This document shows positions 56,811 to 60,052 of a DNA stretch of 64,000 bases, one piece after another. The notes under the pieces were generated by a model. The model worked only from the letters and a program-made list of their open reading frames with translations. It ran no database searches and was not told where the DNA came from. How positions within the stretch are numbered: the first letter of the stretch is position 1; every line of letters starts with the position of its first letter. The translations under genes were made by a program, and so were the position numbers. The stretch is taken from sequence record PV574406.1; one strand, given 5' to 3'. Source of the DNA: Pseudomonas phage SW_PA2862_11_24.

Positions 56811-57937
56811 TTACAGAAAGGATTGCCCAGCTAACTGGGGAACTTAAATTTACAGTCGATTCCCGGCCTCTCACTGCTTTTGACAAGAAGCTCGCTGGGG
56901 TCGAAGCCCGGCTAAGAGAATTCTCCAAGCTGACGAACAAGCGGTTTGGAGTTAAGCTAACTCTAGATACAAAAACTCTGAGAGAGGAGCTTGCCAAGGC
57001 AGCCACTCAAAGGGTAGTCTTGAAGAACATCGCGGTAGATGCTGCCGCTGTTCGTCTTATCTCTGAGAAGCTTCAAGAAAGACTGAATGCAACGCCGATC
57101 AGGTTGAAGTCTGTTAGGCTAGACCTTAGCGGTATCCGAGATCAGAAAAACTTCGTAAAGACGGCTCTCGGCCAGACCAAGGTCGATCTACCGGTTGAAC
57201 TGGGCTTGGCTCAGGCTAGCCGTACGCTGTATGAATGGAAGAAGCGCACAGAGAGTCGTTTTAAAATTCATCTGAATGCAGACATTAGCCGCTCTAAATT
57301 GCTCCAGAATGCACGAAACACACTAAGGGATGTGCAGGGTAGGCTAAACGGTCTTGCTGTCGCTACGCCTCAAATTAGGCTGTCTGTAGACCGTGCCCAT
57401 CTTCGTAGAGAGATTCAAGATGTTCTTGAGCAAATCAGACGCGAAGTGAGAATCCGCATTGACCTAGAGTCTTCCATCCGAGGAGGTGGTGCAGGTGGAT
57501 CGAGAGGTACTGCCGGCCATATCCGTCAAGGTATGGGAATGGGGATTGGTAGCGAGCTAGCCGGGTGGGGACGCGGGTTTATTCCCGGCCTTGGTGGTGC
57601 GTTCGCTATTATGCAGCTTAACCGTGCTAACCAAGAACTGCAAGGTCAACGTCTGGCCATGCAAGCTGTCGGTGGTGGAGTACAGGGTGGTCAAGAGCTA
57701 CAAGCCACCCTCCGCGATATCTCTCAGCGTCTCGGTCTTGACGATAGAGCAATAGGTAGCTCCTATGTTAAGATGATGGCTGCCGGACAAGCATCCAACT
57801 TCGACAAAACACAGGTTGATGGTATCTTCCAATCCATGGCTGAATATGGACGAGTGATGGGTCTGGACGGGGAGGCTATGAAAGGCTCCTTCCGTGCCGT
57901 AGAGCAGATGATGGGTAAAGGACAAATCATGTCTTAA
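56807..57937 (+). CDS. Tape measure protein, N-terminal portion (exon 1 candidate)
   Basis: coiled-coil, Gly-rich; ends inside the conserved tape-measure domain at FRAVEQMMGKGQIMS. Confidence 0.6.
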   Translation: MITERIAQLTGELKFTVDSRPLTAFDKKLAGVEARLREFSKLTNKRFGVKLTLDTKTLREELAKAATQRVVLKNIAVDAAAVRLISEKLQERLNATPIRLKSVRLDLSGIRDQKNFVKTALGQTKVDLPVELGLAQASRTLYEWKKRTESRFKIHLNADISRSKLLQNARNTLRDVQGRLNGLAVATPQIRLSVDRAHLRREIQDVLEQIRREVRIRIDLESSIRGGGAGGSRGTAGHIRQGMGMGIGSELAGWGRGFIPGLGGAFAIMQLNRANQELQGQRLAMQAVGGGVQGGQELQATLRDISQRLGLDDRAIGSSYVKMMAAGQASNFDKTQVDGIFQSMAEYGRVMGLDGEAMKGSFRAVEQMMGKGQIMS

Positions 57938-58018
57938 TTCTTAGGGCATGTAAAACTCTTCTAATTGCTGGAAACTCCTAAAGACACAAGAGCTACAAAG
58001 TGGCCGGTAACGGCGAGC

Positions 58019-58046
58019 TTGACAGCTTGAAAATCTTGTGTATAAT
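58019..58046 (+). promoter_or_regulatory. sigma70 promoter TTGACA-N16-TATAAT for the inserted HNH gene
   Basis: consensus hexamers; TTGACAGCTTGA start. Confidence 0.65.
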
Positions 58047-58071
58047 ACTCCTTTATTTATGAGGAGCAGAA

Positions 58072-58664
58072 ATGGACAATCAGCAGCAAAATACCCTAGA
58101 GGTGTTTAAAATCGTAATAGACTTCCCTCGTCTAGAGGTAAGCAACAAGGGAAACGTTAGGTGCTCAAAGACGCACAAACCTAGGTACACCCGGGTAAAC
58201 AAGCAGGCTACAGGGTTGTGCAGACTAAGGTCAATGGCAAGAGGCATACCCTCAAAGTTCATAGGCTAGTTGCAGAGTTGTTTCTTCCTGCGCCCAGTTC
58301 TGAAATTTCAGATAGGTGTGCGGGAGAGCACTGGAAGAAGGTTGTCGTTAAGCATATAGACAACAATAAATTGAACAATTCCTCCGATAATCTTGAATGG
58401 GACCGCCAGAGCGGAAACGCTAAAGATGCATGGAGGGAAGGGCTCATCCCTAGCCTTAAAGGCTCTTCTAATGGAAGAGCTACTATTACGGAAGCACTAG
58501 TGAACAAGCTGTGTTCTAGCTTTGAGAAAGGCATGATGCCTAAAGAGGCTGCGGATACTTACGGAGTATCCATCCAGCAGGCATCTAAGATCAGAGCAGG
58601 AATCCAGTGGAAACACATATGGAGTCTCTACGACATTAAAGTCAGGAGACGCAATAAAGGGTAG
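58072..58664 (+). pseudogene. HNH_3-type homing endonuclease gene disrupted by a frameshift near 58200
   Basis: frame A EVSNKGNVRC...RVNKQ and frame B GYRVVQTKVNGKRHTLKVHRLVAELF...HIDNNKLNNSSDNLEW are one HNH_3 protein split across two frames. Confidence 0.55.
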
Positions 58665-58801
58665 ATGTTCAACGACTATCCCGAGAGGGAGTAGGGGCAA
58701 GCGCCCCGAAACGGAGAGGACGCATAAGCGTCAAGATATAGTCTGTTCTCATGCGAAAGTATGAGGTGAATAAGATTCCGGCGTGGAAGTAGCGAGCCAC
58801 G

Positions 58802-60052
58802 TTGAACACAAAGGAAGAATTGAAAGGTCAGTTGGCCGAAAGATTCCCCGCTGCTGTAGCTCTGATGGCCAAGTCTCAAGACATGACTATCGCGGAACTG
58901 ATGAAAACGATGGAAGACGGGAAGCTTAAAAGTGATGCCCTGATTCCATTTGCCAGAACTCTCGCCGAAGAGGCTCGTAAAGGTGGCGCTTTGGATGCTG
59001 CTATGCAAGGCACCGCAGCTCAGCAAGGTCGATTCCAGTTCGGATGGAACCGCACTATCGAAGCATTCGCCGCTGGCGGATTCGATAGAGGTATGAGTGA
59101 CTTCTTCAAGATCGCCTCTGACGGCATGAAAGAAGCGCTTCCTCTGGTAACTGCACTTGGTGGCGGGTTCGAAGCTCTTATGAGGCCTGTCAACGCTCTG
59201 GTCGGTATTGGAGGGGAGCTTGGTTCCCAGTGGGAGAACATTGCCAAGCAGTTCAACATGACCGGCACAGGGCTGACTCTTACCACGGCTCAAACCCTAG
59301 CCTTGCTGACCCCTATGGGCAGGTTGATCTCTGCTATTAGCTGGGGTGCGTTGGCACTGGAAGACTTCATTGTCTTCTTGGAAGGCGGTGATTCGGTGTT
59401 CGGGGACTTCTTGAACAACAACGTACAAGCTGCCGAGACATTCGAAAAGCTAGCCAGTGAATCCAGTGAACTGAAGAACAATCTCGACGGTATCTTCTCT
59501 GTTGTCCCGGGGCTAGCTGAAGCGCTCAAAGGTCTAGAGTTCAATGAAATGCTGGTCAGCACGATGAGAGAACTTGCTGCCATCATGGAGTTCTTCAACA
59601 GTGTTGTAGAGAGATTCGCAATAGCCGGCAAGTACAGGGACGCTAAGATTGCTGAAGCCGGAGGAGACAGAAGTACTATAATGTCGAACATCGACACGAT
59701 GTACGCTATGTTCAATCCGGAAGATGCAAAAGACAAGGCCACCTTCATCGGTGACAGGCTAGTAGCTCAGAACATTGACGCGATCCAGACAGAGACTCAT
59801 ACCCGTGCAACCCAGTCCTTGACTCCAGACCAGTTTGGGTATATGATGCAACGTGGTCAAGTTAGAAACGAAATGGAGGGTGCCCTCAAGAAGAGTGCCA
59901 TTGACATTAGTTTCAACCTCAATGTTTCTGGTATCGATGCTCAGGGTAACGTCATGACAACTGAAGCGCAAGAGCGAGTACGAGAGATCGTTAGTAACGT
60001 TCTTGAGGAAGAAATCTCCAGAGCTTCGGCAAGTTATAAGGAATCCCAATGA
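58802..60052 (+). CDS. Tape measure protein, C-terminal portion (exon 2 candidate)
   Basis: no ATG (TTG at 58802, in-frame TAG at 58790); begins EELKGQLAERFPAAVALMAKSQDMTIAELM, the continuation of the tape-measure domain. Confidence 0.6.
   Translation: MNTKEELKGQLAERFPAAVALMAKSQDMTIAELMKTMEDGKLKSDALIPFARTLAEEARKGGALDAAMQGTAAQQGRFQFGWNRTIEAFAAGGFDRGMSDFFKIASDGMKEALPLVTALGGGFEALMRPVNALVGIGGELGSQWENIAKQFNMTGTGLTLTTAQTLALLTPMGRLISAISWGALALEDFIVFLEGGDSVFGDFLNNNVQAAETFEKLASESSELKNNLDGIFSVVPGLAEALKGLEFNEMLVSTMRELAAIMEFFNSVVERFAIAGKYRDAKIAEAGGDRSTIMSNIDTMYAMFNPEDAKDKATFIGDRLVAQNIDAIQTETHTRATQSLTPDQFGYMMQRGQVRNEMEGALKKSAIDISFNLNVSGIDAQGNVMTTEAQERVREIVSNVLEEEISRASASYKESQ

Follow-up and report, generated by a model that had tools for sequence, protein, structure and literature searches.

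The tape-measure gene of Pseudomonas phage SW_PA2862_11_24 (sequence record PV574406.1) was analyzed within the whole stretch of 64,000 nucleotides (nt) under study, hereafter the window, to whose positions all coordinates refer; the window is a part of a Pakpunavirus genome (a PAK_P1-like myovirus of Pseudomonas aeruginosa). The gene is interrupted by an insertion which carries a gene of an HNH endonuclease. Judging from its sequence, the insertion (57935-58813) is, with little room for doubt, a mobile intron of group I, subgroup IA2, which would be spliced out so that the gene yields one protein of 788 amino acid residues (aa). The locus is organized as follows:

56807-57934, plus strand: tape-measure exon 1, 376 codons, ending ...ATC ATG TCT (list of open reading frames, ORFs, and alignment to the intron-less SCUT-S2 gene)
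57935-58813, plus strand: predicted group I (IA2) intron, 879 nt; its first codon is UAA (in-frame stop), and its last letters are ...GAACACAAAG, the terminal G being 58813
58072-58664, plus strand: homing-endonuclease gene (HNH, I-HmuI-like) within the P6 loop, frameshifted in the window
58814-60052, plus strand: tape-measure exon 2, 412 codons and a stop, beginning GAA GAA TTG (ORF list and SCUT-S2 alignment)

Both ORFs that represent the gene were found as given in a preliminary description made from the letters of the window: the upstream one (56807-57937) ends with a stop after ...FRAVEQMMGKGQIMS (GKGQIMS), and the downstream one (58802-60052) starts with TTG and reads NTKEELKGQLAERFP.... 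The same description placed an insert of about 870 nt at 57932-58804. The insert is there; its limits, as determined by alignment with the intron-less SCUT-S2 gene, are 57935 and 58813, corresponding to a length of 879 nt. The intron-less gene reads ...ATC ATG TCC|GAA GAA TTG... and the window reads ...ATC ATG TCT|taattc...acacaaag|GAA GAA TTG..., the intron-less site being ...GGACAAATCATGTCC|GAAGAATTGAAAGG.... Exon 1 indeed ends on T, as had been suggested, with the 5' splice site after T57934. The 3' splice site proposed earlier (cacgttG|aac, 58804) lies 9 nt too early and is to be replaced by acacaaaG|gaagaa at 58813/58814: joining at 58804 would add the residues NTK, which are absent from every intron-less allele, and the match of the covariance model R1 (see below) ends at 58813.

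When position 57934 is joined to 58814, a product of 788 aa is obtained that differs from the SCUT-S2 protein in 4 amino acids; its junction, GQIMS|EELKG, is identical to that of the intron-less protein, and the reading frame is restored exactly. The Pfam domain TMP_3 occupies residues 282-449 of the continuous 788-aa homologue (63.1 bits), and the break at residues 376/377 falls within it, in agreement with the earlier statement that the gene is split inside a conserved tape-measure domain; in the spliced product the domain runs continuously over the junction.

Over 56807-60052 (3.2 kb), the window has 99.0% identity with phage vB_Ps_ZCPS13, compared with 94-95% for PseuPha1 and SPA01; these three are the other carriers of the insert. 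The insert is present in four of the 135 phage records matching the tape-measure region (three phages, one of them duplicated as a RefSeq copy); the remaining matching records possess the single uninterrupted gene of 2367 nt, 788 codons, that was to be expected in intron-less relatives, and the gene has this form in about 120 related genomes. Since most of the records have a continuous gene and only these four have the insert, the split is not a chance arrangement. Among the Pakpunavirus records the intron occurs in four of approximately 121 (three distinct phages), and no intron-carrying alleles were found among IMG/VR contigs. The base at position −1 is T in all four intron-carrying genomes and C in all six intron-less alleles examined, the T in the carriers being required by the U·G pair at the splice site. 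An intron-less allele with T at −1, i.e., a footprint of precise intron loss, was sought in IMG/VR, where the sole match was an unrelated sequence.

Ribozyme core of the insertion

In a local search, the Rfam family Intron_gpI (RF00028) matched positions 57925-58765 with 41.9 bits (E = 5.6e-9). Over the whole window the E value was 2.8e-7, and no other Rfam match that would indicate a second intron was found there. The following elements of the core were recognized:

57928-57950, plus strand: P1, 10 bp; exon CAUGUCU with intron UAA (57928-57937), paired to the guide UUAGGGCAUG (57941-57950) (Rfam alignment and pair check)
57938-57942, plus strand: P10 guide UUCUU, pairing with AAGAA of exon 2 at 58815-58819, 5 bp (pair check)
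57956-57961, plus strand: P3 5' strand CUCUUC, partner GGAGAG at 58713-58718
57966-57971, plus strand: P4 5' strand, partner 58080-58085
57976-57978, plus strand: P5 5' strand, partner 58074-58076
58086-58087, plus strand: P6 5' strand GC, partner GU at 58667-58668
58667-58813, plus strand: 3' catalytic domain (match of model R1, pair checks)
58674-58678 and 58739-58743, plus strand: P7
58679-58690, plus strand: P7.1, followed by the GUA linker (58691-58693) and P7.2 (58694-58707)
58713-58718, plus strand: P3', followed by P8 (58719-58732) and J8/7 AAGAUA
58748-58765, plus strand: P9, followed by P9.2 (58780-58803) and the terminal G (58813)

The splice-site wobble in P1 is formed by U57934 and G57944. 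The placement of P4', P6 and the 5' strand of P7 at 58081-58268 in the Rfam alignment was rejected in part, P4' at 58080-58085 being kept; the P7 5' strand is located at 58674-58678, where GUUCAACGACUA fits the family consensus and the homologues align. P3, P4, P5, P6, P7, P7.1, P7.2, P8, P9 and P9.2 all form in the window with standard pairs, the sole exception being the U·C at the seventh position of P3, which is common to five homologues including both td introns.

For the covariation analysis, the variable P5 and P6 loops were removed, and 12 introns were registered element by element on invariant junctions. A plain MAFFT alignment of the loop-deleted introns (A1) mis-registered the strands of P3 and P4 and was replaced by an N-padded one (A3); CB7 intron B, which MAFFT shifted by one column, was left out of the counts, so that these refer to 11 introns. 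Standard pairs comprise 98.7% of the 546 cells of this alignment, as compared to 75.8% in the shuffled controls and 37-41% in those with a slid partner strand, and 32 of the 50 pairs change on both sides, i.e., in a compensatory manner. None of 500 shuffles reached any of the observed measures. P7 is invariant across the alignment and carries no covariation information.

A covariance model of the 3' domain (R1) was built from nine IA2 homologues with the window sequence excluded. In the 64-kb window it gave one strong match, at 58667-58813 (126.1 bits, E = 5.4e-38), which is full-length, contains no flagged non-standard pairs and stops at G58813, this terminal G being both the last inserted base and the last position of the model match. 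A further match of 10.8 bits at 12020-12136 was discarded as noise, as it lies inside the ORF 11971-12354 and skips the catalytic core. The ends of the ribozyme core thus coincide to the base with the boundaries of the insertion. P7.1 and P7.2, located between P7 and P3' and joined by G-U-A, represent a criterion of subgroup IA2 (PMC3428280); P2 is absent from the window intron, and it is likewise lacking in the T7-like phiI/W31 and Pf-WMP3 introns (PMC3428280).

Endonuclease gene, proposed splicing and mobility

In ZCPS13, PseuPha1 and SPA01 the HNH gene is intact (594 nt, 197 aa). Its window counterpart is split into two frames, 58072-58269 and 58218-58664, by a deletion of one nucleotide (GG instead of GGG at 58206-58207, after codon 45), and restoring the missing G gives the full-length protein. 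This difference is either a real inactivating mutation or a sequencing error, the two being indistinguishable here; if the deletion is real, the endonuclease is apparently decaying within a still intact ribozyme. The product matches the Pfam family HNH_3 with 26.3-26.5 bits (cut-off 24.8), the PHROG 59 HNH endonucleases (1e-38) and the I-HmuI structure (PDB 1U3E; 3.1e-6), and weakly NUMOD4 (14.8 bits, cut-off 23.4). Its nearest relatives beyond the four genomes show about 34% identity. The preliminary description of an HNH_3 homing-endonuclease ORF was right as to the family (26.5 bits) and incomplete as to the frameshift. The start codon ATG 58072 overlaps the 3' strand of P5, the first codons cross P4' and P6, and the stop (58662-58664) is situated 2 nt upstream of P6'; since the gene begins in these strands and ends immediately before P6', it fills the P6 loop.

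In the proposed mechanism of splicing, the ribozyme would fold from the intron in the late pre-mRNA, and P1 would present the U57934·G57944 pair. Exogenous guanosine would attack after U57934, P10 would align exon 2, and the terminal G58813 would be released, joining ...AUG UCU|GAA GAA... into the message of one 788-aa tape-measure protein. In the relatives with an intact gene, the endonuclease would nick or cut intron-less tape-measure alleles in the course of co-infection, and repair would copy the intron together with a short tract of the flanking exons. The window element itself, its endonuclease gene being frameshifted, is probably a splicing-competent intron which is unable to mobilise itself.

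The window intron is 99.5% identical to the copies in three independently isolated phages, with zero differences outside the endonuclease ORF, and the genes flanking the intron differ by up to about 20% in blocks. In SPA01, exon 1 is of the HJ01/PAK_P1 type up to −34 and then possesses the intron-linked markers at −13, −10, −7 and −1, i.e., the tract linked to the intron comprises 13-33 nt. This switch is what co-conversion in the course of homing would produce, and it is suggestive at most. A corresponding tract in exon 2 was dropped as evidence, as its 152 nt are 100% identical in the intron-less PAK_P1, PaoP5 and other phages.

Several observations weigh against the intron interpretation. 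The Rfam score of 41.9 bits lies below the gathering threshold of the family (50), and the match is absent from the listing at this threshold; the homologues, however, score from 39 to 70 bits (39-47 for the ORF-bearing introns of DNA-polymerase genes, 69.6 for the ORF-less td intron), and the shortfall is probably due to the forcing of P4', P6 and P7 onto ORF-internal sequence in the Rfam alignment. The register of the covariation alignment was fitted by hand on conserved junctions and therefore leans towards structure. Splicing in the four genomes is what we infer from sequence and structure; the endonuclease gene is broken in the window, and self-driven mobility is not claimable for this genome. 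The exon-2 flank is not exclusive to the carriers, so co-conversion rests on exon 1 of one phage. The promoter-like match found inside the insert (see the next section) may, moreover, be partly a by-product of conserved ribozyme sequence.

Two kinds of insertion can be set aside at once: an intein is rejected, as the first three bases of the insert (57935-57937) are an in-frame stop, TAA, and the endonuclease gene starts from a codon of its own, and a group II intron is excluded by the same stop and by the group I core. It could be supposed that a free-standing HNH gene has split the tape-measure gene, the halves of which are translated separately and assemble without splicing, as the nrdA gene of phage Aeh1 is reportedly split by mobE. 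The GenBank records in which two tape-measure coding sequences (CDSs) are annotated along with the HNH gene are in line with this supposition, and a restart in exon 2 is conceivable at the in-frame TTG 58820-58822, which is preceded by AAGGA (58811-58815). We nevertheless consider such a gene in pieces very improbable in view of the complete covarying ribozyme core with its ends at the very insertion boundaries, the position of the break inside the TMP_3 domain, the termination of exon 1 by the first three bases of the intron and the location of TTG 58802, at which the second half is annotated to start, in the 3' strand of P9.2 and the intron tail, i.e., inside the intron. We would be hardly less surprised if the insertion were a decayed relic of a group I intron that no longer splices, or an assembly defect, leaving the gene non-functional here. 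The frameshift of the window endonuclease does reveal some decay or a sequencing error, but none of the core helices is disrupted (the only deviation, the P3 U·C, is found in five homologues including td), and a relic is hardly compatible with the 99.5% identity to the introns of three independent phages, from which the window copy does not differ anywhere outside the endonuclease ORF. A self-splicing-type group I intron with a homing-endonuclease gene in a structural gene, as was originally envisaged, is what agrees with the Rfam match, the covarying helices from P3 to P9.2, the R1 score of 126 bits and the frame restored by excision; the fold from P1 to P9 with P7 that had been recommended as a check revealed all the core helices, and the Rfam model responded with E = 5.6e-9, albeit below its 50-bit threshold.

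Some other features of the region may be mentioned. Sharp mosaic blocks among Pakpunavirus genomes are seen at 59300-61700 of the window, covering the 3' portion of the tape-measure gene together with the tail genes downstream of it, and likewise at 57685-57901 for the window relative to SPA01. In these blocks, stretches that differ by about 20% abut stretches with zero differences, and the pattern points to frequent recombination around the tape-measure locus. Two short ORFs (123 aa and 50 aa; 56179-56810) are located immediately upstream of the tape-measure gene; in relatives they bear the annotations tail assembly chaperone and hypothetical protein, and the region just upstream of a tape-measure gene is the usual place of the chaperone frameshift product. 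A cluster of 13 tRNA genes (Rfam tRNA matches) occupies 42483-45396 on the plus strand.

Putative expression signals of the endonuclease

The segment between the two strands of P5 and the beginning of the endonuclease gene contains the following elements:

57979-58073, plus strand: P5 extension, 95 nt (unconstrained fold; conserved and covarying in other phage introns)
57984-57991 and 58034-58041, plus strand: P5a, 8 bp
58003-58014, plus strand: P5b hairpin with a GUAA loop
58019-58046, plus strand: putative sigma-70-type promoter match, TTGACA-16 nt-TATAAT, 12/12
58048-58053 and 58061-58066, plus strand: predicted Shine-Dalgarno-sequestering hairpin, pairing GAGGAG

The promoter had been noticed at the same position from the letters alone, and both of its hexamers are perfect matches. 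An unconstrained fold of 57964-58092 returned P4, P5, P5a, P5b and the Shine-Dalgarno hairpin, and P5a and P5b covary with the introns of SSE121, CB7, KIL1, Vibrio phage JSF10, Staphylococcus phage Machias and the crAss-like cr118_1. Of the −10 hexamer, the first base (58041) is still the final one of the P5a 3' strand, and the rest belongs to an addition of about 30 nt, which also contains the hairpin and the ATG. This addition is common only to the window intron, SSE121 intron A and CB7 intron B, in all three of which the ORF starts here and TATAAT or TATGAT is kept 16-17 nt from the −35 hexamer; the ORFs of SSE121 and CB7 open with the same ATGG(A/G)(C/T)AATCAGCAG as the window ORF.

For the intron endonucleases of T4, a ribosome-binding site hidden by a hairpin and an adjacent promoter have been described (PMC2988022). 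By analogy, the hairpin in the read-through pre-mRNA of the window intron would hide the ribosome-binding site of the endonuclease, and a transcript from the internal promoter would start about 7 nt past TATAAT, inside the 5' arm of the hairpin, leaving this site free. That initiation at the promoter frees the ribosome-binding site appears fairly probable from the geometry. A broader proposal, in which the expression signals make up a portable cassette that is built in part from ribozyme sequence, is exchanged independently of the nuclease body and provides early synthesis of the endonuclease via the host sigma-70, is put forward tentatively, as the balance of probability is somewhat against it; the same 5' half (ribozyme strands and cassette) does recur among the introns that phages of Pseudomonas, Salmonella and Pectobacterium carry in different host genes. 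It is also possible, though again we would not quite expect it, that 58019-58046 is not a working promoter and that translation of the endonuclease relies entirely on read-through or excised-intron RNA. The stretch GCUUGACAGCUUGAAAA, which holds the −35 hexamer, is conserved in the introns of JSF10, Machias, KIL1 and cr118_1, where there is neither a −10 hexamer nor an ORF start, and the −35 match is hence at least partly ribozyme sequence. Such an explanation does not extend to the −10 hexamer (bar its first base), the hairpin and the ATG, which make up the addition found solely in the three introns with an ORF start at this place, and the geometry fits the T4 arrangement (PMC2988022). The homing site was also compared with the promoter region for an operator-like similarity, as in I-TevI, and the similarity did not exceed shuffled controls. 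If the cassette proposal is true, the ribozyme with its cassette and the nuclease body are swapped independently, and a host sigma-70 promoter within a late structural gene would allow the endonuclease to be made before the host gene is transcribed.

Related introns and significance of the finding

The 3' 150 nt of the intron are 71-80% identical to introns of several phage genes. Homologues of the 3' core are located within DNA-polymerase genes from T7-like Yersinia and Klebsiella phages, from Vequintavirinae (SSE121, CB7, Klebsiella phage DP) and from other Pakpunaviruses, in td and nrdD of the T4 type, in a ribonucleotide reductase gene of KIL1 and in the portal region of Pectobacterium phage Koot; for several of them, the records already mark an intron or a joined CDS. 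The T7-like DNA-polymerase introns (phiI/W31 type; Yersinia phages Berlin, Yepe2 and Yep-phi, Klebsiella phage Kpp-61) and that of Pf-WMP3, all of subgroup IA2, likewise lack P2 and have GUA-joined P7.1 and P7.2. The T7-like introns are 73-74% identical to the window intron in the 3' domain (over about 150 nt), possess a nuclease ORF in the P6 region and display the same pattern of core covariation. In contrast to them, the window intron resides in a tape-measure gene and has a correspondingly different guide, its P5 extension is long (P5a, P5b and the expression cassette), and its endonuclease is I-HmuI-like, whereas the ORF of the Berlin type is annotated as endonuclease VII.

The td introns of T4 (with I-TevI) and of Salmonella phage SEA1 (ORF-less) have an IA2 core like that of the window, with 70-72% identity in the 3' domain and all the helices aligning. 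The T4 td intron also begins with UAA, carries its ORF in the P6 loop and has a promoter beside a hairpin that sequesters the ribosome-binding site (PMC2988022); it differs in having the P2 helix, a GIY-YIG endonuclease and a T4 late promoter, whereas the window intron has no P2, an HNH endonuclease and a candidate promoter of the sigma-70 type. A 5' half with 77% identity belongs to the Vequintavirinae DNA-polymerase introns, Salmonella phage SSE121 intron A and Pectobacterium phage CB7 intron B, which share P5a, P5b, TTGACA...TATGAT, the Shine-Dalgarno hairpin and the ORF start ATGG(A/G)(C/T)AATCAGCAG with it; here the host gene is a different one, the endonuclease bodies are only 24-29% identical, and the SSE121 intron has P2. 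The introns of Vibrio phage ICP1 and of prophages of the Bacillus cereus group resemble that of the window in the class of the host gene and of the HNH-3 endonuclease; the phage lineages are unrelated to that of the window, and the ICP1 gene has three introns and the window gene one.

Several side observations were made on these relatives. The DNA-polymerase genes of CB7 (629-2371 of its stretch) and SSE121 (1146-2893) each contain at least two group I introns with different HNH genes. The major capsid protein of the crAss-like cr118_1 is encoded by two CDSs about 480 nt apart (364-840 of its stretch); the gap opens with a P3-P4-P5a-P5b segment homologous to the 5' half of the window intron and is probably an unannotated group I intron. 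In the DNA-polymerase intron of the Pakpunavirus vB_VIPPAEUMC01 (1315-1634 of its stretch), the P7.1 region contains an insertion of about 30 nt; at least two related introns, each at a site of its own, are therefore present in the genus.

That structural genes of phages contain group I introns is well established (PMC3706429). The tape-measure gene has been called a 'frequently interrupted gene' in the work in which the splicing of the ICP1 introns with HNH-3 genes was demonstrated by reverse transcription PCR (PMC10448857), and introns at three insertion sites were described in the tape-measure genes of Bacillus cereus-group prophages (PMC2504315). For Pakpunaviruses, the preprint on phage P7-1 reports an intron-split long-tail-fibre gene in phage LCK69 and does not mention a tape-measure intron. 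In our literature search, no paper describing the tape-measure intron of the four phages was found, and the SPA01 paper is silent on introns and endonucleases. The finding is genuine: the insertion is a group I intron of the IA2 type whose HNH gene is I-HmuI-like. Its kind is already known in tape-measure genes, and the finding opens no new question.

Its value is chiefly that of annotation: the GenBank records of ZCPS13, PseuPha1 and SPA01 do not mark the intron and present the locus either as two tape-measure CDSs and an HNH gene or as hypothetical proteins. Since therapeutic cocktails make use of Pakpunaviruses, a correct gene model of the tail-length determinant is useful. It is also of interest that some of the isolates harbour a mobile element which would be able to convert markers next to it in relatives infecting the same cell. 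The intron of the window adds one case to the documented pattern of homing-endonuclease introns in conserved tape-measure stretches and provides a compact example of an intron-encoded endonuclease that is apparently decaying.

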